Assembly: GCA_031292385.1 (NCBI GenBank)
Contig: JARLHE010000040.1
Coordinates: forward strand, 34,471-98,470
Source of the DNA: Oligoflexia bacterium
GTDB lineage: Bacteria; Bdellovibrionota; UBA1018
Reading direction: 5' to 3'
Length of the DNA stretch: 64,000 nucleotides
Notes under the pieces: model-generated
Databases searched by the model: none
What the model saw: only the letters and a program-made list of their open reading frames with translations
Told to the model about the DNA's origin: nothing
Made by a program: the position numbers and the translations under genes
Shown: positions 2,897-46,769 of the stretch, piece by piece
How the letters are laid out: every line of letters starts with the position of its first letter
Position numbering within the stretch: the first letter of the stretch is position 1

Positions 2897-3262
2897 CTAG
2901 CCTTGCTTGATTTGGCGCTCGATGGCTTCCTTGAGAACGACCGCGTTATTGTGATCTTCGTCGCGAGCGGAATAAATCAAAGTCACGGGCGATTTACTGG
3001 CCCGTTTCGCGAGGGTATCAATGGTTTCGCGTGCTGCTTTGGAGCGGAGCTCTAGCCGATATCTGGCGCGGAACTGCTTCCACCGCGACGGGTCGTGCCC
3101 GAAGTCCTTGCGAAGCTCCGGGCTCGGTGCGAGGTCCTTGATCCACTGATCGAGCGCCAGTCTCGATTTTTCGATCCCGCGCGGCCAAAGCCTGTCGATG
3201 AGAACCCGATAACCATCCTTGCGCTCAGGCGGCTCGTACGCTCTTTTCATCTTGATCATCAT
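2897..3262 (-). CDS. DUF488 (YeaO-like) family protein
   Basis: MIKMKRAYEPPERKDGYRVLIDRLWPRG matches the DUF488 N-terminus. Confidence 0.6.
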   Translation of the reverse strand: MMIKMKRAYEPPERKDGYRVLIDRLWPRGIEKSRLALDQWIKDLAPSPELRKDFGHDPSRWKQFRARYRLELRSKAARETIDTLAKRASKSPVTLIYSARDEDHNNAVVLKEAIERQIKQG

Positions 3263-3318
3263 TTCGAGATCATTTCATTTCCCGTACCGGTCATGAGCGC
3301 CTGTCTGGCACGCCCGTT

Positions 3319-3334
3319 TGGCACTCCCTTTGCT
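3319..3334 (+). promoter_or_regulatory. candidate sigma54 (RpoN) -24/-12 promoter TGGCAC-N5-TTGCT
   Basis: Exact match to the consensus TGGCAC N5 TTGCW, 14 nt upstream of the archease ATG. Confidence 0.4.
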
Positions 3335-3347
3335 GCCCTTTGTGCCG

Positions 3348-3803
3348 ATGGGATACCGATATCTCGAGGATCTCGGCTACGCCGACGCCGCCTTCGAGGC
3401 GGAGGGCGTGACCCTGGAAGAGGTGTTCGTATGCGCGGCGGACGCCCTGGCGCATCTGATGGTGGAGGACTTGAATTCAATTCAGCCGAAGACGGTCCGT
3501 CAGATTGAGATCAAGCAGAAAGCCGGAGCACCGAGAGACGATCTGTCGAGATTGCTCCAAGAATTTCTCGAAAAGATCATTTACTGGAAAGATGTCGATC
3601 GGCTTTTGCTTCGCGCCAGCAATGTAGAAGTGAAAATGGCGGCGGCCGACTACGGGAGGGAAGTGATTGGAGAGCTTTGGGGCGAACCGATCGATCCAAG
3701 CCGCCACGCGTTGGGAGCCGACGTGAAGGCGGTTACCTTTCATCAAATGAAGGTCTGGAAAGAAGGGCAGTTGTGGAAAGCGGTCGTGGTCGTTGATATA
3801 TGA
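3348..3803 (+). CDS. archease (RtcB activator)
   Basis: MGYRYLEDLGYADAAFEAEGVTLEEVF aligns with the archease N-terminus (M-Y-Y-..-D-HTAD-...-TLEEAF). The 3' end overlaps the next gene in an ATGA. Confidence 0.75.
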   Translation: MGYRYLEDLGYADAAFEAEGVTLEEVFVCAADALAHLMVEDLNSIQPKTVRQIEIKQKAGAPRDDLSRLLQEFLEKIIYWKDVDRLLLRASNVEVKMAAADYGREVIGELWGEPIDPSRHALGADVKAVTFHQMKVWKEGQLWKAVVVVDI

Positions 3804-4174
3804 ATCGGATCGCCAACATCGTCTTGCTTGCTCATTTTTTGTGGGTTTTAGCGGTACTGCTTCCGGTTTTTCTGATTCCGTTTGGCTTTCGAAGGCGATG
3901 GCGTTGGCCGAGGGACCGTGCGCTTCGCGCCGTCCATCTTGCCATGATCGGAATCGTGATCGTCGAGTCTCTCTTGGGCGTTGTTTGCCCGCTTACTCTT
4001 TGGGAGGATCTGCTTCGAAGACGGGCCGGGAATTCGCCGTACGGGCGCTCCTTTGTCGAGCATTGGGTCGGCCGAGTTCTTTATTACGATTTTCCATCAT
4101 GGGTTTTCGTTGCCGTCTATCTGTTTCTCGGCTTTATCATTCTTATTTTGTATCGGCAGTATCCGCCGGACTGA
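3800..4174 (+). CDS. DUF2784-like small membrane protein
   Basis: Three or four predicted TM helices (LLAHFLWVLAVLLPVFLIPFGF, AVHLAMIGIVIVESLLGVV, VFVAVYLFLGFIILILY). It is translationally coupled to the archease gene. Confidence 0.5.
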   Translation: MNRIANIVLLAHFLWVLAVLLPVFLIPFGFRRRWRWPRDRALRAVHLAMIGIVIVESLLGVVCPLTLWEDLLRRRAGNSPYGRSFVEHWVGRVLYYDFPSWVFVAVYLFLGFIILILYRQYPPD

Positions 4175-4231
4175 TCTGATTCGCGTGCATCTCTTGCAGG
4201 AGCGTCGTTGAAGGAACGGGGACTGTCGCTT

Positions 4232-5734
4232 ATGGCTCAATCAAGTGGCTCGATTGCCGGTCTGCCGACCGAACCGCGGTTCGATATCAGCCGCCTCACT
4301 CCTATCACGGATACTCTGTGGGAGCTGCCGGCTGACGCGGGCCGGGGAATGAGGGTGCCCGCAAGGATCTTCGGTACCCGTCACCTGCTAGAACAAATGG
4401 ATGCCGCGGTCTTCGAGCAAATTACGAACGTGGCGACGCTACCCGGTATCGTTCGATATGCTTGCTGCATGCCCGACGGGCATTCCGGGTATGGTTTTCC
4501 GATCGGAGGAGTCGCGGCATTCGACGCCGCGAACGGGGTGATTTCGCCCGGCGGCATAGGGTTCGACATCAACTGCGGGATGAGGCTCGTTGTGACATCG
4601 CTCACCTTCGATGAGGTGATGCCTCATCTTCATTCGCTCGTGGATCGGCTTTACGACCGGGTTCCGGCCGGAGTGGGTTGCGCGGGTCTACTTCGGCTTT
4701 CAACCGAAGACCTGCTTGAAATCGCGGAGAAGGGCGCGCTTTGGTGCTTGGAAAACGGCTACGCCTGGCCGGAGGACCTGGCGCTCACCGAGGATGGGGG
4801 GCGATCGCTGGGCGCCGATTCGAATCAAATCAGCCCTGAGGCGATCGCCCGAGGGCGCGGGCAAGTGGGGACTCTGGGCTCGGGAAATCATTATCTCGAA
4901 ATCCAGGTCGCTCGACCGGAAAATATTCACGATCCGCAAGTTGCCCGCAACCTCGGCATCGATCTACCGAATCAGGTTGTGATTATGTTTCATTGCGGAA
5001 GCCGGGGCTTCGGTCACCAAGTCGCAAGCGACTACCTGAGGCTCTTCATCGACGTCATGGAAAGAAAGTACGGAATCCGCGTTCCGGATCGGGAGCTGGC
5101 CTGTGCGCCTTTTGATTCGCCCGAAGGTCAGGCCTATTTCTCGGCGATGAAATGCGCGATCAATATGTCGTTCGTGAACCGCCAGGTCATTCTTCACCGG
5201 ATCCGGGAAGTCTTCAGCGACGAGTTTCATAAAGCCCCGGAAGAGCTCGGCTTACGCATGGTCTATGACGTCGCTCACAATACGGCCAAGCTCGAAAATC
5301 ATTGGATCGAGGGCAAGCAGAAAAAGCTCGTCGTTCATCGAAAAGGGGCGACTCGCTCTTTCGGGCCGGAAATGCCGGGTTTGCCCGAAAGATACCGCAA
5401 TTTAGGCCAACCCGTGATTATCGGGGGCAGCATGGAAAGCGGCTCCTATCTGATGCTGGGCCTGTCGAGCGCGGCCCCAGCGTTTTTCAGCAGCGCTCAT
5501 GGCAGCGGCCGAACGATGAGCCGAACTAAAGCCAAGCGTCAGTTCAGGGGGCGACAACTGGCCGACGATATGGCCTCGCGCGGAATTTACGTCAAGAGCG
5601 CATCCTATTCGGGCTTGGCGGAGGAGGCCGGCAAAGCTTACAAGGATATTGACGAGGTCGCTTCGGCGTCGGAGGCGGCGGGATTGAGCAGACGAATCGT
5701 GAAGCTGGTGCCCATTGGAAATATCAAAGGTTAG
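4232..5734 (+). CDS. rtcB: RNA-splicing ligase RtcB (3'-phosphate/5'-hydroxyl RNA ligase)
   Basis: Carries MPDGHSGYGFPIGG, GSGNHY, HNTA and C-terminal SAHGSGR, the RtcB metal- and GTP-binding motifs. The track start at 4208 is TTG; ATG 4232 has GGGGA 10 nt upstream. Confidence 0.85.
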   Translation: MAQSSGSIAGLPTEPRFDISRLTPITDTLWELPADAGRGMRVPARIFGTRHLLEQMDAAVFEQITNVATLPGIVRYACCMPDGHSGYGFPIGGVAAFDAANGVISPGGIGFDINCGMRLVVTSLTFDEVMPHLHSLVDRLYDRVPAGVGCAGLLRLSTEDLLEIAEKGALWCLENGYAWPEDLALTEDGGRSLGADSNQISPEAIARGRGQVGTLGSGNHYLEIQVARPENIHDPQVARNLGIDLPNQVVIMFHCGSRGFGHQVASDYLRLFIDVMERKYGIRVPDRELACAPFDSPEGQAYFSAMKCAINMSFVNRQVILHRIREVFSDEFHKAPEELGLRMVYDVAHNTAKLENHWIEGKQKKLVVHRKGATRSFGPEMPGLPERYRNLGQPVIIGGSMESGSYLMLGLSSAAPAFFSSAHGSGRTMSRTKAKRQFRGRQLADDMASRGIYVKSASYSGLAEEAGKAYKDIDEVASASEAAGLSRRIVKLVPIGNIKG

Positions 5735-5752: not shown

Positions 5753-6316
5753 ATGGAACGGCTTCGGCTCTTCATTGCCGTCGATGTCGGGGGTGATGTC
5801 CCTCATCGGTATGAAAGCGTCATCGGGAATTTGAAATGGCTCGGCAATTCATCCCGCATCAAGTGGATAGATCCCGGAAATCTCCATCTGACGCTGAAGT
5901 TCCTGGGGAGTACTCCTGTCGAAGCCCTTCCCGTTCTTGAAACGATTCTCAAGGACATCGCGGCGAATCATCGTGCGTTTTTCATCACGCTGGCGGGGCT
6001 TGGGATGTTTTCCACCCGGCAGCGCACGCAAGTGCTTTGGGCCGATGTTCAAGAAGGAAAAACGGAGCTTGAGCGCATCGCCGCGGAGCTGGACCAGTCC
6101 TTGGGGGAATTGGGTATTCCTCGCGAGCCGCGCGCGTTCGCCGCGCATCTCACCTTGGGGCGCGCCAAAGACCGGAGTTTTACGCGGGAGGCGTTAAATA
6201 AGCTCAAAGGCTTTCCATTCGGCACGACGCCGATTTCCGAGCTCGTGCTTTTTGAAAGCCAAACCCTTCCCGCTGGCGCGGTCTATCGCGCGCTTGTCCG
6301 AGCAAGATTGGCTTAG
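5753..6316 (+). CDS. thpR: RNA 2',3'-cyclic phosphodiesterase ThpR/LigT (2H phosphoesterase)
   Basis: Two HxT/S motifs (HLTLKF, HLTLGR) with 2H-family spacing. Lies 18 nt downstream of rtcB. Confidence 0.8.
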   Translation: MERLRLFIAVDVGGDVPHRYESVIGNLKWLGNSSRIKWIDPGNLHLTLKFLGSTPVEALPVLETILKDIAANHRAFFITLAGLGMFSTRQRTQVLWADVQEGKTELERIAAELDQSLGELGIPREPRAFAAHLTLGRAKDRSFTREALNKLKGFPFGTTPISELVLFESQTLPAGAVYRALVRARLA

Positions 6317-7551: not shown

Positions 7552-9697
7552 AACCTTGGAAGTCAAGTCATCGGGTGGATTTGGTCCGGCGCTGACGAAG
7601 CTACTGCGCTCAGAATTGGGTGCGCGTCCTGGTCGAGTCCAGCATGTCCTTGCCATCAGCGCCTACGCGGTTTTGGCGGTGATTCTATCGGAGACCTTTC
7701 AAATCCCGGAACCGGCCCTGTCCGTTTACTATGTTTTTTTGATCACCAAGGAGGAGACGGCGTCGACGTTTTTGAGCGGAAGCCTGGCGGTTTTGGGCGT
7801 GAGCGCGGCGGTTCTCTCGGCGCTCGCGATTTACATGGTTTCGATCGGCGAGCCTGGCCTGAGGATGCCGCTCATGGCCGTCGTGATCTTCACGATCATG
7901 TTCATCTCGCGCGCATCGCGGCTGGGCGCCGCCAGCACGATGATCGGCCTTTTGGCGATTCAATCGCTCACTTTGCTGGACGTCATTCCGCTCTCCGATC
8001 CGCTTCCTGCCGCGGAATTACTGACGCAGCGGCTGCTTTGGCTTTGGGTGGTTATCCTGATGCCGGTTGGGCTGGTGATCGTGGGTAATATCGTCGCCGG
8101 GCGGGATCCCATTGATCTGTTCACTCACTATCTGGTCGAAGAGTTGGAGCTTGCGGCTCGAGTGCTGGTATCTCATCGCAGGCCCGCCGATCGGGAGCGA
8201 CTTGTCGCTTATGTTCAGGCGGATACGGGCAGGCTTCTGAAGTACCTGAAGATGTCGGGGACGTTCAAGAAGCGAACACTCCAAGAACAGGCGGTCAATC
8301 AGGCGCTGGTCGCTCATATGGGGCGTCTGACGGTGCTGCTTTCGCTATGGACGGAGCTTGACGTCAGTGAATCTCGGCTCGTGGAGGTCGCGGCCGGTTG
8401 CGGAGCCAAGCTTTTGTCGCAGGCGCGATTCATTCGGGAAAAGACGGCGGTTTCCATAAGGGCCTCCACGAAGCCAGAGTCGCCGTCGCTTCATGCCTTT
8501 AGTGAGGGATCGGAGAGCGATTCCGCGACCGAATGCAAGGCCTTCTATCTGCTGCGAAAAATAATTGAGCTGATCGAAACCTTGCCGCAGGCCTTGGTTT
8601 CGCGCGCCTCGTCGGACTCGGTTGAGCTCCAGAGCCGCGAAACCGAAATACCGAATCGGAGATTTCTACGGCCGGATGCGTTTCGCAATCGGGTCTACGT
8701 TCATTTCGCGCTCAAATGCACTCTTTCCGTTTTTACGGCTTATATTACCTACAATTTGTTGGATTGGCGCGGAATTCAGACGTGCATGATTACGACGATG
8801 GTCGTAACTCTCGGCAGCTTCGGAGAAACCGCGCATAAGATGGTCTTGCGCATCATCGGGGCGTTGATTGGCGGCGCCTTGGGGTTCTTGGCCGTCCTCT
8901 TCGTGATTCCTTATATGACGACCATCAGCGAATTGAGCTTGATGGTCGCGGTTGTTGCTTTCTTCTCCGCCTGGGTCATCACCAGCAGCGAACTGCTCTC
9001 CTATGCCGGGTTGCAAATCGCCCTGGCGTTTTTTCTCAGCACTCTCGTCGGATACGAGCCCACGGTGAATCTCGCGATCGGGCGAGATCGAATCATGGGC
9101 GTTTTATTCGGTAATTTGATTGTTTCCATTGTCTTTTCGACGATCTGGCCGGAAAGCGCCGTGGCACAATCAAAAGTGTCCCTCGCGCAGGCGCTTCGGA
9201 AATTGGCGGAATTCTTCGCGCCGGAATCCGAGCATCTGAGCGAGGTGCAGGCCGATTCACTTCTTTTTGAGTTAGGAGCCGCGATCGGGAGCGCGCGGCG
9301 CTTGGCGGTTTTGGACGCCTTTGAGCCCAAGCATATCAAGCAGGGAGCGATCCGGATGGCGGATCCCCGCGAAGTGATCGACGCGGTCCGCGATCTATGT
9401 AGCACTGCGATGGTTTTGCGCGATCCTCTTTTCAGGCATCCCGAACTGCCGTTGCTTACGAAGACCTACGATCAAGCGTTGAGCTTTTGGCTGGCGTTGT
9501 TCGCCAGGGAGGTCGAAGCCGGTATCGATGCCGGCGCTCCACCCGACGCGACTCCGCTGGTCCAAATCCTGCGCTCAGCGGCTCTTTGGTCAACCGAGAA
9601 GGTCGAGCTCCTGGCTTTGGCCGAGTGGTACCGCGCGCTCGATGATCAAGTGCATGGTCTTGAAAGATTGACAAAGCAAAAGGGGGCAACGAAGTGA
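7535..9697 (+). CDS. FUSC-family efflux transporter (MdtO/AaeB-like)
   Basis: 720 aa with two clusters of TM helices separated by a cytoplasmic domain. Overlaps the upstream gene. Confidence 0.8.
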   Translation: MVPIAETLEVKSSGGFGPALTKLLRSELGARPGRVQHVLAISAYAVLAVILSETFQIPEPALSVYYVFLITKEETASTFLSGSLAVLGVSAAVLSALAIYMVSIGEPGLRMPLMAVVIFTIMFISRASRLGAASTMIGLLAIQSLTLLDVIPLSDPLPAAELLTQRLLWLWVVILMPVGLVIVGNIVAGRDPIDLFTHYLVEELELAARVLVSHRRPADRERLVAYVQADTGRLLKYLKMSGTFKKRTLQEQAVNQALVAHMGRLTVLLSLWTELDVSESRLVEVAAGCGAKLLSQARFIREKTAVSIRASTKPESPSLHAFSEGSESDSATECKAFYLLRKIIELIETLPQALVSRASSDSVELQSRETEIPNRRFLRPDAFRNRVYVHFALKCTLSVFTAYITYNLLDWRGIQTCMITTMVVTLGSFGETAHKMVLRIIGALIGGALGFLAVLFVIPYMTTISELSLMVAVVAFFSAWVITSSELLSYAGLQIALAFFLSTLVGYEPTVNLAIGRDRIMGVLFGNLIVSIVFSTIWPESAVAQSKVSLAQALRKLAEFFAPESEHLSEVQADSLLFELGAAIGSARRLAVLDAFEPKHIKQGAIRMADPREVIDAVRDLCSTAMVLRDPLFRHPELPLLTKTYDQALSFWLALFAREVEAGIDAGAPPDATPLVQILRSAALWSTEKVELLALAEWYRALDDQVHGLERLTKQKGATK

Positions 9698-11205
9698 AGC
9701 CCCGTTCGGTTTTGACGAATACGGTAAGTGTCGCGGCCTCTCTGGTTTTGATCGGATGCTCGTCTGTCGCGCACTTGGCGCCGGAATCGCCCAGCCGGCC
9801 CTGGCAGCAAGCCGGAGAATCGCCGCAAAAGCCGATGATCACGCCAAAGTTCGGGGTGCGGCCGGATCCCGAACTTCCCTATAATGAGGAGCGAGTATCA
9901 ATTGCGGCGGATCATGTTTACACGCTCCCCGAGTTGATTGATTTAGCGGAACGCGCGAATCCCGATACGCGCATCGCCTGGGAAGAAGCCCAGCAAGCGG
10001 CTTTTCAGGTTGGGATTGAGCGCGCCAGTTATCTTCCGCAAATCAGCGCGGAAGTGCTTGCCGGCAAGCATTATGAACCGCTGCCGCTGCCGCCGGGAAG
10101 TTATTTCATCGCCAAAGGGGATGATCTTGAGCCTGATTTCATGATCAAATGGCTGCTCTTCGATTTCGGAAAGCGTGAGGCTCAGATTGACGCCGCCAAG
10201 GAGCTCTCCGTCGCTTCGAACATCGCTTTCACGGGTGCGCATCAAAAATTGATCTTCGAGGTGAGTAAGGCTTACTTCTATCTCGACGCGGTACGGGCGC
10301 AGCTTCGCGTTGCCGAGGATGCGCTGAAGAACGCGAATACTTTGCTGGATGCCGCCGGCGCCCGGCGACGGCACGGCTTCGAAACGATCACCGAAGTCAC
10401 GATCGCGCGCCGGGGAACGGCAAAGGCGCAATACGATCTTGAACGAGCCCGCTTGCTTGATAACGACGGCTATCATGCGCTTTTGGAGGCAATGGGTCTT
10501 ACGCCTACTTTGAGGCTGGGAATCGAGTCGAGCTCCGGTCGTCCCTTGCCGAAAGAGCTGACCGAAGAGGTGAGTGCTTACATTGATCGGGCCACCGTTC
10601 AGCGGCCGGATGTGGTCGCGGCCTTGGCTAAGGTTCGGGCGAGCGAATCCGAAATCGCCAAAGCCCAAGCGGAATTTTACCCGACGCTGGAGCTTAAAGG
10701 CCGGGCAGGCAGGAATTTCGCGCCCGTGAGCATCGACTTGGCGTCGGTTTATCAAGCGCCGTCCGGGCCGAGCTATAAGATCGACGATTGGGTCACTTCG
10801 ATTTCTCTCAATCTGAGCTTTTCCATCTATGACGGCGGGATACGCCAGCATAACGTGAGTATCGCCAACTCCAAGAGTGCGGCGGCCAAAGAGGAGCTGA
10901 TCAGAACCCAAGATCAGGCGGTTCGTCAGGTGGCAAGAGCTTACGACACGATGAGGAGCACGCTTGCCGAATACAATGCAGCTTTAGCGCTCGTCGACGC
11001 GGCGAATACGGCTTACGCCTCCGCTCTGGAATCTTATCGCAACGGAGTGGGCACATTCATCGATGCCGTTACAGCCGAAACGGAGAAAGCCCATGCCGAA
11101 TCAGCGCGAGCACAGGCTTATGCCGCGGCCTTGACCGCAGCCGCGACTCTCGCTTTCTCGACCGGCACGCTCACCTCGGTTGAGGCGCTGAATTCATCGC
11201 CTTAA
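9694..11205 (+). CDS. outer membrane efflux lipoprotein, NodT/OprM/MdtP family
   Basis: GTG start overlaps the stop of the FUSC gene. Lipobox LIGC, then the repeated OEP helical pattern of TolC-like proteins. Confidence 0.8.
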   Translation: MKPRSVLTNTVSVAASLVLIGCSSVAHLAPESPSRPWQQAGESPQKPMITPKFGVRPDPELPYNEERVSIAADHVYTLPELIDLAERANPDTRIAWEEAQQAAFQVGIERASYLPQISAEVLAGKHYEPLPLPPGSYFIAKGDDLEPDFMIKWLLFDFGKREAQIDAAKELSVASNIAFTGAHQKLIFEVSKAYFYLDAVRAQLRVAEDALKNANTLLDAAGARRRHGFETITEVTIARRGTAKAQYDLERARLLDNDGYHALLEAMGLTPTLRLGIESSSGRPLPKELTEEVSAYIDRATVQRPDVVAALAKVRASESEIAKAQAEFYPTLELKGRAGRNFAPVSIDLASVYQAPSGPSYKIDDWVTSISLNLSFSIYDGGIRQHNVSIANSKSAAAKEELIRTQDQAVRQVARAYDTMRSTLAEYNAALALVDAANTAYASALESYRNGVGTFIDAVTAETEKAHAESARAQAYAAALTAAATLAFSTGTLTSVEALNSSP

Positions 11206-21270: not shown

Positions 21271-21451
21271 ATCAGGCTCCGAATGCTCATTAATAAATGA
21301 AGATGTTTCTTCCGTCAGATCTGCGATGTGACCGCGGGGCCTGTGCAGAATTGGTGCCATCGATGCATCGGGAAAAACGACTGGGCTGGCGCTACATCAC
21401 CGAGTTTCGTGCGTAGCTCGCTTCATGTTGCAATTCACGTTGCAGGAGGCA

Positions 21452-22183: not shown

Positions 22184-22337
22184 TTATGCTTGGGCGAGCA
22201 TGTAAACGCCATCTCTGTCGCCTTGCATAGATTCGACATTGCTCCTCATCGCAGGCGGGGTGCAGCCAAGTGCAGATGTTGTGCCACCAAAAATGCGATC
22301 ACATCGCGATCATGACTCGTGATCGGAGGCCTTAAGA

Positions 22338-36099: not shown

Positions 36100-36749
36100 T
36101 CGCCCGACATAGGGTGGTCAAAGGACAAGCGCAGCGAGTGCAGGGCCGGGCGAGGAAAATTCGCGGCCCGACCGCCGTATTTCGTATCGCCAAGGAGTGG
36201 GAAGCCCTCGGCTGCCGCTTGAGCCCGGATTTGATGCGACCTCCCTGTTTCGAGCGAAAATTCCGCGAGCGTCAGCCGGATGCCGTTGAAGCTTGCATGC
36301 CCTTTGGGCGTTACCCGTAGCGCCGAAAGTTTGGCTACCGGAGTGCGTGCCGCGCGTTCTTTGGAGATCGCTCGGGTCGTGTTGGTGCGTTCGTCTTTGA
36401 GCAGAAAATGCTCCCATCGTTCCGGGGCGTTCAATTTTCCGCTCGGATCAACCAGCCAGGCCAGATAGACGCGGCTCAGGCTTCCCGACTGCAAGGCTTC
36501 GGTCAATCTTTGCGCCGATTTGCTTCGTTTTGCCAAAATCATGATGCCCGAAGTGTTCCGGTCCAGCCGGTGAATCAGGCCAATGTAATTTCGCCCGACA
36601 TGTCCTCTCGCCCAATCGACCAGATTAGGCTCCCCTGTATGCTCCCCCTGGCTTAAAAGGCCCGCTGGCTTGTCGATGACCATCAAATGCGTATCCTCAA
36701 ACAAGATCGTGGGCATCTGGGGAGAGGGTTTGCTAGAATCTGAACTCAT
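36039..36749 (-). CDS. RluA-family pseudouridine synthase (second copy)
   Basis: HRLDRNTSGIMILA catalytic motif. Confidence 0.75.
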   Translation of the reverse strand: MSSDSSKPSPQMPTILFEDTHLMVIDKPAGLLSQGEHTGEPNLVDWARGHVGRNYIGLIHRLDRNTSGIMILAKRSKSAQRLTEALQSGSLSRVYLAWLVDPSGKLNAPERWEHFLLKDERTNTTRAISKERAARTPVAKLSALRVTPKGHASFNGIRLTLAEFSLETGRSHQIRAQAAAEGFPLLGDTKYGGRAANFPRPALHSLRLSFDHPMSGDHLVFEAPLPEDMRSIQPFK

Positions 36750-39204
36750 GCGAAGCCTTTCTGCGATTCTTTGCGTTTTCGTCATTTTGGCTTACGCCAT
36801 CGCTCGCTGGTTTAGCAAGGGGCCGCTCCCCGATCTTTTGCTTCTGGCGGTCGGCTTGCCGTTGATGGTTCTTTTCGCGATCCGTATTGTTTCCCTTCGT
36901 ACCCAGTTTGTCGCCGCGATCATGCTGATCACGACGCTGACCGCGGGCATCATTTTCTGGAGCCTCAGTATTCTGGAAACCCGCGAGCAAGTGGCTCGCA
37001 TCGAGCATCAATCGGTGATTTTCTCCCGGTTCTCAAGCGAGCGTTTGGTCTCGAATTTCGTCAAGAATTTCGAGCATAACTATCTCGACCGGTTTTTGCC
37101 AAGCATCCGGGAGCTGACGGCGACCGATGAGAACCTGGTCTCCGTGCAGATTATCTCGGCCCGCTCCCGTAATGTTCTTTTTGACAGCGAGAAAGCCTTG
37201 GGAGGGAAATCGGCCGCGGTTTCGACTCCCGTGATCGACAAAGCCCATTTCTCCAAAGAGGCGGAAGAGGAGCTCTTGTCCCGCGATCTCGTCAGTCGAA
37301 AGCTGACTCGGGACGGCGAGCCGAGCTTTTCGGTCATCAGCACCTACCGGGCCGAAAACGGCGAAGCGGTTTTCCTGGTGAACTATCTTTTCAGTTACCG
37401 GTCTTTGCAGCGGAGCCTGCGCTTGATTCGCCACCAGATCCTGCTCGACTTGGTGCCGGCCACGATTTTGGGTTTTTTGATCGCCTTGGGTTTCGCCCAG
37501 ATCCTGATCGCGCCGATCCGGGCTCTCATGGCCGCTTTGGGCAAGGTCACCTCGGGCGATTACTCGGCGCAGGTCAGAATCAGGAACCAGGATGAGATCG
37601 GGGAGCTTGCCTCCGCGTTCAATCTCATGACCGAGGAGCTGAGGCGAAAGAAGGAACTGCGTAAATTCCTGTCGAATTCATCCTACCAGCGCATCATACG
37701 GGCGACGGAGCAGGGCGAAGGCCGGATCGGCGGCCGTCGGATGCAGGCCACGATCCTGTTTTCCGATATCCGTAACTTCGTCGCTCACTGCGAAGCGCTC
37801 GATGCCGAAGACGTCACCTCGATGCTCAACGATTATTTCACCGAGATGGTTGAAGTCATTCATCGCAATGGGGGAGAGGTCGATAAGTTCATCGGAGACG
37901 CTATTCTTGCCGTGTTTTACGAAGAAGCCGGAAACGGCGAGTCTTCGCTTCAGGCGATCTATTGCGCGCTCGGCATGAAGGCCCGGCTTTTGGAATTCAA
38001 TGCCCGGCGGGCGTCCCAGGGCAAGCCCACGCTTGAAATCGGAGTCGGCATCAGCCGCGGCGAGATCATCTCGGGCCCGATCGGCTCTGACGATCGGATG
38101 GATTTCACTGTCATCGGCGATGTCGTCAATCTCGCCAATCGCATCGAAAAGCTCTCTAAGCAAGGCAAGCACACCCGCGTTGTTTTTTCGGACGCGGTCG
38201 AGGCGGTCGTGCGCGGCTTGCTCGATTACGAGGAAATCGAAGTGGTCGGGGGGATTCGCGGCAAAAGCGAGGAGGTGCGGGTTTTCGAGCTCGTTCGAAT
38301 CAAGGATATCGATACGCTCAAAGCGCATCTCGAAGCGCCGGCGGATCAGAATCCGGAGCTTCGAGTCAGGAGCGTCGAGCTTTTGGGGCAATCCGGCCAT
38401 CGCGACGCGGTGAAGCTATTGGCGGAGGCTTTGTCCGATAAGAGTGAGGCCGTGCGGATTGCCGCCGCAGGCGCGATCGCCCGCGCTGCTCAGGCCCAAA
38501 GCGGCTCTCAAGAAGGGGACCAAACGGCGGATGCGGTGCGCGCTCTTTTTGCGCGCCTGAGAAACGAGACCGCGCTCAAGCCGATATCGGCTTTGATCAC
38601 CAGCATCGGGAAGCTTTGCCGCACGAACGAGATCCTGGCGCTCGAGCCTTTTTTGAAATTCAAGGACGAGCGTATCGTCGCCAACGCGGTCGAGGCTTTG
38701 GGCTGGTCCAAAGCGCCGCGGGCGGCGGATCTGATTTTGCCGCTGCTTTCGAGCAAGAATAACCGCATCAAGGCGAACGCCGCCATGGCGCTTTTTTCGG
38801 CCGGCCATGTCGAGGTGATCGACGCTTTGAAGCCGATGCTCATGCACTCGGACGCGCCCATGCGCTCGAGCGCCGCCTTCGCCATCGGCGAGCTGACGTT
38901 GATCGCTGATTTGGATTCGGTCGTGAGCGGGCTGAAGGACGACGCGGCCAAGATGCGTTTTTATCTCGCCGAGCTCCAGGACTGCGTGCCCATGCTCGTG
39001 TCGCTGCTGCGCGACCCGGATCCGATCGTTCGCAGGCAATCGGTCATCGCGCTCGGCAAGATCAAGGACAAGGCGGCCGTGTTGCCGATGATCGAGATGC
39101 TGGACGGCGGCTCGAAGGATTCTCTGGCGGTCGATATCCTGAACGCACTCCGCTCAATCGGCTCTCATCGCGTGATTCGCGATACTCTGGCTAGGCTGTC
39201 CTAG
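36748..39204 (+). CDS. membrane adenylate cyclase: TM - HAMP - class III cyclase domain - HEAT (PBS-lyase type) repeats
   Basis: HAMP (IAPIRALMAALGKVTSGDYSAQVRI...ELASAFNLM), an active CHD (ILFSDIRNF, KFIGDAILAVF, VNLANRIEKLSK), and C-terminal repeated AVRxxAAxALG HEAT units. The track start at 36670 overlaps the divergent gene, so MRSLSAILC at 36748 was used. Confidence 0.75.
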   Translation: MRSLSAILCVFVILAYAIARWFSKGPLPDLLLLAVGLPLMVLFAIRIVSLRTQFVAAIMLITTLTAGIIFWSLSILETREQVARIEHQSVIFSRFSSERLVSNFVKNFEHNYLDRFLPSIRELTATDENLVSVQIISARSRNVLFDSEKALGGKSAAVSTPVIDKAHFSKEAEEELLSRDLVSRKLTRDGEPSFSVISTYRAENGEAVFLVNYLFSYRSLQRSLRLIRHQILLDLVPATILGFLIALGFAQILIAPIRALMAALGKVTSGDYSAQVRIRNQDEIGELASAFNLMTEELRRKKELRKFLSNSSYQRIIRATEQGEGRIGGRRMQATILFSDIRNFVAHCEALDAEDVTSMLNDYFTEMVEVIHRNGGEVDKFIGDAILAVFYEEAGNGESSLQAIYCALGMKARLLEFNARRASQGKPTLEIGVGISRGEIISGPIGSDDRMDFTVIGDVVNLANRIEKLSKQGKHTRVVFSDAVEAVVRGLLDYEEIEVVGGIRGKSEEVRVFELVRIKDIDTLKAHLEAPADQNPELRVRSVELLGQSGHRDAVKLLAEALSDKSEAVRIAAAGAIARAAQAQSGSQEGDQTADAVRALFARLRNETALKPISALITSIGKLCRTNEILALEPFLKFKDERIVANAVEALGWSKAPRAADLILPLLSSKNNRIKANAAMALFSAGHVEVIDALKPMLMHSDAPMRSSAAFAIGELTLIADLDSVVSGLKDDAAKMRFYLAELQDCVPMLVSLLRDPDPIVRRQSVIALGKIKDKAAVLPMIEMLDGGSKDSLAVDILNALRSIGSHRVIRDTLARLS

Positions 39205-44417: not shown

Positions 44418-46769
44418 GTGAGAAACCGCCTCTGGCTCTGGCAGCTGCCGATTATCCTGCTTTGCGTTTTTGCGTATGCGGTTTGCGATCTGGGCGTTCG
44501 CGGCAAGCTTGAAAATCGGCTCCTGCGAGAACGCCTATTCCCCGGCTTGAGGTCGGTTTCAACGGTCTTTTCGGACGCGAAATTCCGAATGCGGGGGCCG
44601 GCGCCGATCAAGAATAAGATCGTGATCGTGGATGTCGACGGGGCGTCTTTGGATGCTTTGGGTCGCTGGCCTTGGCATCGCGATGTCGTCGCGGCCGTGA
44701 TCGATACGATTTTTTCGTACGGGGCCAAGGTGGTCGGCCTCGATATGGTGTTTTCGGAGCCGGACCGGCGCATTCCGGAAGAGTTGGCGAACGCGTTGCC
44801 GCCTGAAATGTTTCGAGACTTAAAGCGGAAACTCGAAACCGATTCGAAACTGACCGAAGTCATTCGTAAATACAGCGATCGCCTCGTTCTAGGATGGGCC
44901 AGCGATGGGCATTGCCAGCCTCTTTATCAGGATCCCAAAGATTGCCCGGTGAATGATCCGCAAGTGATCTCGGGCATTCAGCCGGGATTCGAGAAGTTCG
45001 CGGTTTCCCAGCAGGAGCCTCTGACTTTCGATAATCGGAAAACGCCGTTGCTGTCGTTGCTCGCTCTCCTGGCCAATCTTCCCGAGTATAGCGACGCCGC
45101 CCAGCATGCGGGCTCGTTCGATATCGTTCCCGATTCCGACGGTGTGGTGAGGCGGACGAATCTCGTTTTCGCCGCTTCTTCTCAAAGCGGCATGGCGAAA
45201 GCCTATCCGTCGCTCCCCCTGGAAATGGCCAGGGTCGGGCTCGGCGACCGGCTTGATGTTCATTTCGATTCAGGCAACCGCATCGAATCGCTGCGGTTCG
45301 CGAAATCGGGAGAAGCCCTGCCGGTTTCTCCCGTGGGCGCTTTGGAGATCAATTTTCGCGGCCCCGCCCAAAGCTTTCAGTATGTCAGCGTCGCTGAGCT
45401 TCTCGCCGAAGGAGAAAAACTGGAAAAAGACGGAACCCGGCGGCCCGCCGCGGTCTCGAAGGTCGAGTTCTTGCGGAATGCGTATGTTCTCTTCGGGGTG
45501 TCCGCTCTGGGGGTGTACGATATGCGGGCGTTTCCCTTCGATTCGAACGTCCCGGGGGTGGAAGGGCATGCGAATATTTTGGACAATATCCTGGCTCAGG
45601 ATTTCCTCACCAGCGGCAAAGGGCTTTTGAGCTCGGATTTGCTCTATTTGATCATGATTTTAGGCGGCGTCTTGTTCGCGATTTTCGTGCAGCGGTTGGA
45701 CGCGATCCCCGCGCTCGTTTTCACTTTGCTGGTCTTCGGAGGGCTCGGGACGTTCGATACGCAGTTTCTTTTCAGGCGCAATATCGATTGGAACACGAGC
45801 TTCTTTTTTCTCGAGCTCAGCTTCATTTTCATGTCCACGATCGCCGCCAAATACGTCATCGAAGAGCGGAACAAAAGGTTCGTGCGCGGCGCTTTCGCGA
45901 AGTACGTGGCTCCGGCGGTGGTTGATTCGATCCTGAAGGATCCGGCGAAGCTGACCGTGGGCGGCGAAAAGCGCGAGCTGACGATTCTGTTTTCGGACAT
46001 CCGCGGCTTTACCACCTTTTCGGAGCGCCTCGACGCCAGGGCCTTGGCCTCGTTCCTGAATGATTACCTGTCGATTCAAACCAAGATCATCTTCGGTCAC
46101 GAAGGCACGCTCGATAAATACATCGGCGATGCGATCATGGCCTTCTGGGGCGCGCCGCTCGATCAGGCGAAGCAAGCTTCGAATGCGTGCAAAGCGGCGA
46201 TCGCGATGATGCAGGCCCTGGCAGCTAACCGCAAACGATTCAAGGAACAATACGGCGTCGACGTGGATGTCGGGATCGGTCTTAATAGCGGCATGGTGAA
46301 CGTGGGCAACATGGGTTCGAACGAGAACTTTTCGTACACGGTGATCGGTGACCACGTCAATCTCGCATCGAGGCTCGAGGGGCTGACCAAGTATTACGGC
46401 GCCGGGATCGTGACCTCGCGCTTTACGCTCGATATGATCGAGAAGGAGGGCGAGCCGCTTCCTAGGTTTCGCGTGTTGGATTCGGTCAAGGTCAAAGGCC
46501 GGAAAAGCGCGGTGGAGCTGGTGCAGATTCTGGACCGGGATTACCCCGCCGACGGCCTCGCGGCGTTCGAAGAAGCGAGAAAACTCTATTTGTCCCGGGA
46601 CTGGAATGCCGCTGAAGCGGCCTTTAGGAAAGCAAATGAGTTGATTTCTTCGGCGCTCGGACTGGTTGTCGATGGGCCGTCTCAAATGTACATCGACCGA
46701 TTCAGTGAATTGAGGTCGGCGCCTCCTTCGTTCGATTGGGATGGCTCCTGGGAAATGCACAGTAAGTAA
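44418..46769 (+). CDS. CHASE2 sensor - class III adenylate/guanylate cyclase
   Basis: CHASE2 (IVIVDVDGASLDALGRWPWHRD...GLDMVFSEPD), three TM helices, and an active CHD (ILFSDIRGFT, KYIGDAIMAFWGAP, VNLASRLEGLTK). Confidence 0.8.
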   Translation: MRNRLWLWQLPIILLCVFAYAVCDLGVRGKLENRLLRERLFPGLRSVSTVFSDAKFRMRGPAPIKNKIVIVDVDGASLDALGRWPWHRDVVAAVIDTIFSYGAKVVGLDMVFSEPDRRIPEELANALPPEMFRDLKRKLETDSKLTEVIRKYSDRLVLGWASDGHCQPLYQDPKDCPVNDPQVISGIQPGFEKFAVSQQEPLTFDNRKTPLLSLLALLANLPEYSDAAQHAGSFDIVPDSDGVVRRTNLVFAASSQSGMAKAYPSLPLEMARVGLGDRLDVHFDSGNRIESLRFAKSGEALPVSPVGALEINFRGPAQSFQYVSVAELLAEGEKLEKDGTRRPAAVSKVEFLRNAYVLFGVSALGVYDMRAFPFDSNVPGVEGHANILDNILAQDFLTSGKGLLSSDLLYLIMILGGVLFAIFVQRLDAIPALVFTLLVFGGLGTFDTQFLFRRNIDWNTSFFFLELSFIFMSTIAAKYVIEERNKRFVRGAFAKYVAPAVVDSILKDPAKLTVGGEKRELTILFSDIRGFTTFSERLDARALASFLNDYLSIQTKIIFGHEGTLDKYIGDAIMAFWGAPLDQAKQASNACKAAIAMMQALAANRKRFKEQYGVDVDVGIGLNSGMVNVGNMGSNENFSYTVIGDHVNLASRLEGLTKYYGAGIVTSRFTLDMIEKEGEPLPRFRVLDSVKVKGRKSAVELVQILDRDYPADGLAAFEEARKLYLSRDWNAAEAAFRKANELISSALGLVVDGPSQMYIDRFSELRSAPPSFDWDGSWEMHSK

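Follow-up and report, generated by a model that had tools for sequence, protein, structure and literature searches.

A 64,000-nucleotide (nt) stretch of DNA from an Oligoflexia bacterium (Bdellovibrionota; contig JARLHE010000040.1 of assembly GCA_031292385.1, positions 34,471 to 98,470), analysed here as a whole and called the window, carries at positions 3319-3334 a motif of the sigma-54 (RpoN) -24/-12 type, which lies directly before a putative operon encoding archease, a DUF2784 protein, the RNA ligase RtcB and a LigT-like phosphoesterase. We consider it fairly probable that this element would act as a functional, activator-dependent sigma-54 promoter of the four-gene RNA-repair operon, that the resulting mRNA would be leaderless or nearly so, and that the arrangement represents one case of a geometry which recurs throughout the lineage. 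The evidence is computational throughout, and it supports the interpretation offered in a first-pass annotation of the same DNA. The control of an RtcB operon by sigma-54 is already known; what is new is the geometry in which the promoter abuts the AUG, together with its recurrence in Bdellovibrionota.

The putative promoter element upstream of archease

A sigma-54 motif is present before archease, as the first-pass annotation had observed. The element, TGGCACtccctTTGCT (that is, TGGCAC-tccct-TTGCT on the plus strand), is made up of TGGCAC at 3319-3324, the spacer tccct at 3325-3329 and TTGCT at 3330-3334, and it carries all 10 core bases of TGGCAC-N5-TTGCW, with W = T and with the GG and the GC exactly 10 nt apart. 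The earlier description of a perfect RpoN consensus is thus right for the ten-base core, but not for the extended consensus TGGCACG-N4-TTGCW, whose position 7 is here a T instead of a G. The surrounding sequence, including the archease start, is cTGGCACgcccgttTGGCACtccctTTGCTgccctttgtgccgATGggataccga, and the features that concern us first are the following.

3319 to 3334, plus strand: sigma-54 type promoter core, with the -24 GG at 3320-3321 and the -12 GC at 3332-3333, as read from the sequence
3343 to 3348, plus strand: predicted transcription start zone, 10-15 nt after the C of the GC, according to the canonical sigma-54 geometry
3348 to 3803, plus strand: archease gene, 151 amino acids (aa), Pfam PF01951 (E = 3e-31), starting at ATG 3348 and not at the annotated TTG 3318
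2897 to 3262, minus strand: divergent DUF488 gene (Pfam PF22752 and PF04343), which bounds the 85-bp gap
3306 to 3311, plus strand: second TGGCAC copy, 13 nt upstream of the TGGCAC of the promoter, without a matching -12 GC
3342 to 3346, plus strand: GTGCC, an inverted copy of the GGCAC at 3320-3324, directly before ATG 3348

The element is non-coding, sits in the 85-bp gap between the divergent DUF488 (minus strand) and archease (plus strand) genes, and shares the orientation of archease, so that it is indeed placed, as had been proposed, to drive the archease-rtcB operon. Over both strands of the window, the exact sequence TGGCAC-N5-TTGC occurs this single time, against a mean of 0.10 in 100 dinucleotide-preserving shuffles of the window, nine of which held at least one exact match. 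The resulting background rate is about 8e-7 per position, and the chance of finding an exact site in the 85-nt gap in the correct orientation, computed from it, is therefore about 7e-5. When the search was extended to 922 kb (the window, four loci of the lineage and 80 archease loci of other phyla), perfect sites were found four times, all of them in the Oligoflexia/Bdellovibrionota lineage and each directly upstream of an open reading frame (ORF). A simple scan of positions 3000-3600 on both strands, which sees near-consensus promoters only, found no sigma-70-like promoter, and no terminator was found there either.

As a separate observation, three GGCAC/GTGCC words fall within 41 nt around the promoter (3306-3311, 3320-3324 and 3342-3346); the minus-strand GGCAC at 3346 has no accompanying TTGC.

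The archease start codon and the predicted leader

The position of the start codon is critical to the geometry, and the available annotations disagree on it. ATG 3348-3350 is in frame with GTG 3342 and with TTG 3318; the NCBI Prokaryotic Genome Annotation Pipeline (PGAP) chose the latter (MDR3607876.1, 161 aa), which makes the coding sequence overlap the promoter, and a second gene caller chose ATG 3348 (record P0001, 151 aa). The archease start is ATG 3348, because several features of the protein agree with it. In an alignment of 32 homologues, the N-termini (MPYRYLED or similar) are in register with the MGYRYLED encoded from ATG 3348, and all 32 proteins start 0-8 residues before the conserved Tyr3. 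Asp13 is invariant in this alignment, and the next in-frame Met after ATG 3348 is residue 38. In turn, the Pfam archease profile aligns only from residue 13 of the long ORF onward, two residues after the Met of ATG 3348. The 10-codon extension from TTG 3318, which overlaps the promoter, shows no conservation in the homologues, in line with the earlier opinion that this upstream start was unlikely.

By reading of the sequence, no purine-rich Shine-Dalgarno stretch precedes ATG 3348, GTG 3342 or TTG 3318, so that the earlier statement that the gene lacks such a signal holds for any of the three candidate starts. ATG 3348 itself is preceded by ctgccctttgtgccg and constitutes an AUG start without a Shine-Dalgarno sequence.

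The spacing from TTGC to ATG 3348 is 14 nt. Let d be the number of nt by which the A of the ATG lies downstream of the C of the -12 GC; for archease d is then 15 (from C3333 to A3348), and the leader predicted from the promoter geometry would have 0-5 nt. The first-pass annotation had proposed that the ATG nearly abuts the predicted start and that the mRNA would be essentially leaderless, and this is consistent with a d of 15, which by the same geometry would leave about 0-4 nt. In differential RNA sequencing (dRNA-seq) of Campylobacter jejuni, 8-13 nt separate the end of the sigma-54 motif from the transcription start (PMC3847290), a range that includes A3348 itself.

In the mechanism that we propose, the sigma-54 RNA polymerase would bind the -24 GG and the -12 GC as a closed complex, which would fire only once remodelled by an AAA+ enhancer-binding activator whose gene would lie elsewhere in the genome. 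With the -12 GC lying 15 nt from the archease ATG, transcription would begin at the start codon or at most about 4 nt before it, so that the archease mRNA would be leaderless or nearly leaderless and its translation would proceed without a Shine-Dalgarno interaction. Downstream, DUF2784 would be translated by coupling through an ATGA overlap and rtcB from a Shine-Dalgarno sequence of its own.

Recurrence of the geometry in the lineage

The same spacing is found before other genes of the lineage. Sites were counted when GG-N10-GC was intact, at least 7 of the 10 core bases matched and d was 13-17, with the start codons taken as called by the source pipelines. The discovery set comprised 79 called genes in five loci, L001 (the same contig in another assembly, reaching 6.6 kb further left than the window), L002, L084, L086 and L134, and the expectation was derived from the lineage-wide density of sites. 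Seven of the 79 genes carry a site at d = 13-17, versus 0.39 expected (Poisson P = 2e-7); without the archease finding itself there are six, versus about 0.31 expected. Furthermore, three sites lie at exactly d = 30, versus 0.08 expected. At their called starts, none of the seven genes with d = 13-17 has a Shine-Dalgarno sequence, which is present in two of the three genes with d = 30. The seven genes are listed with locus, d and core matches.

Archease, window: d 15, 10/10 core
Short-chain dehydrogenase, L086: d 16, 10/10 core
NadE, L002: d 14, 8/10 core
DUF2071, L086: d 13, 8/10 core
HIT, L084: d 14, 7/10 core
M50, L134: d 15, 7/10 core
CMAS, L134: d 17, 7/10 core

The second perfect site of this list, TGGCACTCCGATTGC, lies in the archease-proximal intergenic region of L086 and faces away from archease, at d = 16 before the ATG of the short-chain dehydrogenase; the N-terminus of this protein (MENTGSGPFSGKVALVTGASSGIG) is consistent with a start at that ATG. 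The Usp genes of two relatives should be considered separately. In L002, TGGCACGGCGGATGC (9/10) stands at d = 15 before the second in-frame ATG, which has a GGAGG 1 nt before it, and the orthologue in L134 has a site at d = 17 (7/10 core). In both genes (L002 13686 and L134 3003) the called ATG falls inside the GG-N10-GC motif, and the protein homology starts at the next in-frame ATG, which suggests the same kind of start mis-call as at archease.

The control used sites that match at least 8/10 core bases and whose next ATG downstream begins an ORF of 100 aa or more. Among 300 such sites in 808 kb of DNA of other phyla, none had that ATG at d = 13-17, versus 6 of 47 in the lineage. The 13-17 nt window had been chosen after the archease finding had been seen, and therefore an independent validation set was fetched, consisting of five further Bdellovibrionota/Oligoflexia loci reached through M50 protein homologues, with 82 called genes. 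Four of these (Lon, two M50 orthologues and a small ORF) have a site at d = 13-17, versus 0.38 expected (P = 7e-4).

Among orthologous genes, the best case is that of the site-2 protease with Peptidase_M50 and CBS domains, whose gene overlaps and precedes archease in L002 and L133. Across seven M50 loci, d is 30, 15, 15, 15 and 18 in five; in one of the other two the site precedes the gene upstream of M50 in the operon, and the last locus has no site. The M50-archease operon of L002 has a perfect site of its own, TGGCACCGTTCTTGC, 30 nt before the M50 ATG and accompanied by a Shine-Dalgarno sequence. The sites before the protease gene are as follows.

L002, 8839-8853: d 30
L134, 7119-7105, minus strand: d 15
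L135, about 9972-9986: d 15
L137, about 9969-9983: d 18
L139, about 7745-7759: d 15

The M50 orthologues with an ATG-adjacent element encode proteins that are 38-50% identical, and the retention of the element by the ATG of the same gene at such divergence argues for function. Altogether, the best reading of these data is that the archease promoter of the window is one instance of a lineage-wide geometry, in which a sigma-54 element would be set at d = 13-17 before start codons devoid of a Shine-Dalgarno sequence.

Points against this reading and alternative explanations

Several observations weigh against an activator-dependent, leaderless promoter at archease, and the first group concerns conservation. 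The archease genes closest to that of the window offer no counterpart of the arrangement, since they stand in other contexts: those that are 57-60% identical (L002, L003, L133) lie behind an overlapping Peptidase_M50 gene, and in L084 and L086, whose RtcB is 78% identical, genes on the opposite strand come between archease and rtcB. A scan of a genome collection with a 13-sequence archease alignment gave 80 loci of other phyla, at no more than 48% identity, and in none of the 80 does a strong sigma-54 site stand just upstream of archease. Likewise, a metagenome-wide search for a perfect site followed by 10-40 nt, an ATG and an archease N-terminus gave 43 matches, with no archease behind a perfect site. 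Even within the lineage, many sites match the core in only 7-8 of 10 positions, and the 13-17 nt range was picked post hoc, a point that the validation set answers.

The second group concerns the activator. The six-frame translation of the window holds neither a GAFTGA motif nor a Walker A motif (GESGxGK) of an enhancer-binding protein, and tblastn with E. coli RtcR gave no match in the window, L001, L002, L084, L086 or L134; as a positive control, the same query finds the control-set activator in L046 (2.5e-31). To these can be added the Pfam scans of 30 window ORFs, in which nothing sigma-54-related appeared, and the search for an RpoN-box in the 64 kb of the window and the 6.6 kb to its left, which did not find one. 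Those 6.6 kb (read in L001) carry radical-SAM, OprB, DUF1254/DUF1214, PAS histidine kinase, DUF892 and PilZ genes, and no activator. The first-pass annotation had seen no enhancer-binding-protein gene in the window, and the motif, Pfam and RtcR searches all agree with it. The search for an upstream activator site gave nothing convincing: apart from short direct repeats, it found a single weak inverted repeat of 15 nt, at 3140-3176 within the DUF488 gene.

Finally, two details of the transcript itself speak against a strictly leaderless message. If the C is numbered -12 in the canonical way, transcription would start at C3345, giving a 3-nt leader and not a 5'-terminal AUG, and a hairpin at the predicted 5' end of the mRNA may pair part of the AUG, although it is not significant (z = -1.1).

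With these points in mind, four other explanations were weighed. It seems unlikely to us that the motif is a chance occurrence and that the operon is transcribed from an unrecognised sigma-70 or extracytoplasmic function (ECF) promoter inside DUF488, as a leadered archease mRNA without a Shine-Dalgarno sequence. The rarity of the motif is less impressive for the window taken as a whole, since nine of the 100 shuffles had an exact match somewhere, and the sigma-70 scan recognises near-consensus promoters only; moreover, an obvious Shine-Dalgarno sequence is missing from the majority of called genes in the related loci, so that its absence alone is not diagnostic. What chance does not readily account for is a match in the right orientation within that one gap (about 7e-5), the location of all perfect sites in the 922 kb within the lineage and upstream of ORFs, and the enrichment of the 13-17 nt geometry in two independent gene sets along with its absence in the controls.

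Sigma-54 needs no activator to form stable closed complexes, and many sigma-54 binding sites in the Salmonella regulon are reportedly non-productive. The polymerase might thus bind at 3319-3334 without productive transcription, as a closed-complex roadblock or occluder that would, for example, damp a DUF488 promoter, and the failure to find an activator gene or upstream activator site nearby is in keeping with such a role. We nevertheless give it little credence. The site faces the gene, its spacing is that found at many genes of the lineage, and the position of the start codon relative to the site is conserved, which would be expected from selection on the start site and not from a roadblock; furthermore, sigma-54 activators are often encoded far from their targets.

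Should TTG 3318 be the true start (161 aa), the motif would encode an N-terminal extension, M-A-L-P-L-L-P-F-V-P, and the promoter would lie further upstream, an option that we regard as very unlikely in spite of a frame open back to 3318 and of the choice made by PGAP. The extension has no counterpart in the 32 homologues, the Pfam profile leaves out the first 12 residues of the long ORF, a Shine-Dalgarno sequence is lacking before TTG 3318 too, and the second caller preferred ATG 3348; the same artefact is seen in the two Usp genes of relatives, where homology begins at the next ATG. Lastly, it is highly improbable that the promoter is real but that the start position, or a downstream start codon, leaves a normal leader: sigma-54 starts do vary by a few nt relative to the GC between promoters (PMC3847290), but the start cannot precede the -12 element, and the next Met (residue 38) would remove the invariant Asp13 and the conserved N-terminal strand.

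Relation to known systems

The productive, activator-dependent promoter that we favour has an evident precedent. In E. coli and Salmonella the operon is rsr-yrlBA-rtcBA, and RtcR is a CARF-domain activator whose gene, rtcR, is usually divergent. The first-pass annotation cited the dependence of rtcBA on sigma-54 and RtcR in these bacteria, correctly as precedent (PMC3854526; also PMC7790460 and PMC9650030). As there, the window presents an RtcB operon behind a near-consensus -24/-12 element in a divergent intergenic region (TGGCACGACGGTTGCA in E. coli, TGGCACTCCCTTTGCT in the window), and by analogy the operon would be expected to stay silent until a stress-activated AAA+ activator fires (PMC3854526). 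Unlike in E. coli, no rtcR adjoins the operon or lies within about 70 kb, the divergent gene being DUF488, and no rtcA or other RTC-family gene is found among the operon genes (Pfam: archease, DUF2784, RtcB, LigT), so that the partners of RtcB are archease, DUF2784 and a LigT-like 2H phosphoesterase. The spacing differs too: in E. coli K-12, TGGCACGACGGTTGCA is followed by 39 nt, including a purine-rich stretch, and then by the ATG (d = 40), whereas in the window there are 14 nt and no Shine-Dalgarno sequence. Because it has neither an adjacent rtcR nor an rtcA, the archease-rtcB operon does not belong to the RtcR system, even if its mode of action may be similar.

A second point of comparison is the leaderless mRNAs transcribed from sigma-70 promoters whose -10 element abuts the ORF, described in Deinococcus-Thermus, Actinobacteria, C. 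jejuni and rhizobia (PMC12340547, PMC3847290, PMC4842269). In C. jejuni, all leaderless mRNAs are preceded by TAnAaT (PMC3847290), and in Bradyrhizobium japonicum they are preceded by TGnTA (PMC4842269); for Sinorhizobium meliloti, 171 leaderless starts were reported and no link to sigma-54 was made, and for a myxobacterial activator gene, leaderless transcription from a sigma-A promoter has been proposed (PMC12754779). Our sites resemble this class in that a promoter stands at a fixed short distance from the AUG, there is no Shine-Dalgarno sequence, the arrangement recurs in a lineage and the genes are often stress-related. They differ in the element itself, which is not a -10 of the sigma-70 type but a -24/-12, and which would need an ATP-dependent activator. 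In the literature searched we found no description of a sigma-54-driven leaderless class, an absence that is not proof that none exists. Literature searches on DUF488 with RtcB and on sigma-54 in Bdellovibrio yielded neither sigma-54 leaderless transcripts nor rpoN information for the lineage.

Finally, as in other archease-RtcB pairs of bacteria and archaea, archease, a cofactor of RtcB, is encoded with the ligase in one transcription unit. In many of the 80 loci of other phyla archease directly follows rtcB, an order different from that of the window, and no strong upstream sigma-54 site accompanies it in any of them. A distinct arrangement was seen in Verrucomicrobia (Udaeobacter-like): within the 40 nt before the archease ATG there are two or three copies of TCGTCATT, without an obvious Shine-Dalgarno sequence (L029, L034, L049, L055, L062, L070, L075, L080), which may be a lineage-specific operator or promoter.

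Possible significance

What is unusual in these genes is the geometry, with the -12 element about 15 nt from the AUG at unrelated as well as orthologous genes across a bacterial class. If the sites are real, the bacterial mode of transcription initiation with the tightest gating, ATP-dependent and with no basal leak, would be joined to leaderless translation, which until now has been tied to sigma-70 -10 boxes. We therefore put forward, as a tentative proposal and not as our expectation, that Bdellovibrionota/Oligoflexia possess a class of activator-dependent sigma-54 promoters that start at the start codon and would deliver stress and repair genes as leaderless mRNAs, translated without the anti-Shine-Dalgarno sequence of the 16S rRNA. 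The genes assigned so far to such a class would include those of archease, the site-2 protease with CBS domains, tandem Usp, Lon, NadE, HIT and the short-chain dehydrogenase.

If this were true, damage to the 3' end of the 16S rRNA or to the pool of initiation-competent 30S subunits would leave archease translatable. Since rtcB has its own Shine-Dalgarno sequence, the escape from anti-Shine-Dalgarno pairing would cover archease only, and DUF2784 by coupling. RtcB has been reported to reverse the MazF cleavage of 16S rRNA (PMC5416887); a link between MazF and the present operon was considered, but it was downgraded to speculation because rtcB is here preceded by a good Shine-Dalgarno sequence. 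From a practical perspective, annotation pipelines appear to mis-call the starts of such genes, as with TTG 3318 and the two Usp ATGs inside the motif.

The operon and other sigma-54-like sites

Downstream of archease, the putative operon continues with three genes, all on the plus strand.

3800 to 4174, plus strand: DUF2784 small membrane protein, Pfam PF10861 (E = 9e-27), whose ATG overlaps the archease stop codon (ATGA)
4208 to 5734, plus strand: RtcB RNA ligase, Pfam PF01139 (E = 4e-159), with start TTG 4208 or, according to NCBI, ATG 4232
5753 to 6316, plus strand: LigT/ThpR-like 2H phosphoesterase, Pfam PF02834 and PF13563, last gene of the putative operon

DUF2784 is probably coupled translationally to archease through the ATGA overlap. 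TTG 4208 of rtcB is preceded by AGGAG at a spacing of 5 nt, its own Shine-Dalgarno sequence, and RtcB shows 100% identity to MDR3607878.1, a protein of a metagenome-assembled genome of an Oligoflexia bacterium. No convincing terminator was found after ligT. The presence of DUF2784 between archease and rtcB is unexpected for a partner in RNA repair, and none of the related loci examined showed it. Besides, all five loci of the lineage have a TTGCA(A) word at 17-35 nt upstream of rtcB (window 4194-4198, L002 about 15700, L084 about 7978, L086 about 7969, L134 about 9981), with a matching -24 GG in L084 only (TGGTCC-N5-TTGCA, d = 20).

When one mismatch to TGGCAC-N5-TTGCW was allowed, two further sites were found in the window, both of the form TGGCAC-N5-CTGCA, intergenic and correctly oriented to genes.

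21344 to 21359, minus strand: second sigma-54-like promoter, TGGCACcaattCTGCA, 75 nt before a Shine-Dalgarno-preceded ATG (about 21269) of a 1139-aa surface protein
22271 to 22286, minus strand: third sigma-54-like promoter, TGGCACaacatCTGCA, 89 nt before ATG 22183 of a 243-aa hypothetical protein

The start of the surface protein of about 1139 aa is preceded by GGAG, and the protein has a signal peptide, Ice_binding and DUF11 domains and seven DUF7933 repeats; the 243-aa protein has no Pfam match. Both sites are probably ordinary, leadered sigma-54 promoters. The three well-placed sites of the window, together with the enrichment in the lineage, would give indirect support to the use of sigma-54 by this organism.

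Two minor observations complete the picture. About 3.3 kb to the left of the window (L001, about 3297-3311), CGGCACctcgtTTGCA stands 30 nt before a DUF1254/DUF1214 gene, followed by the PAS histidine kinase gene, and could be another candidate sigma-54 unit near the archease operon; its kinase has no adjacent response regulator. Within the window there are also two adenylate/guanylate cyclase genes on the plus strand, one of HAMP-cyclase-HEAT composition (36670-39204) and one of CHASE2-cyclase composition (44418-46769). The former shows a weak GG-N10-GC match (7/10) 15 nt before ATG 36748, from which a signal-peptide-like N-terminus is encoded.

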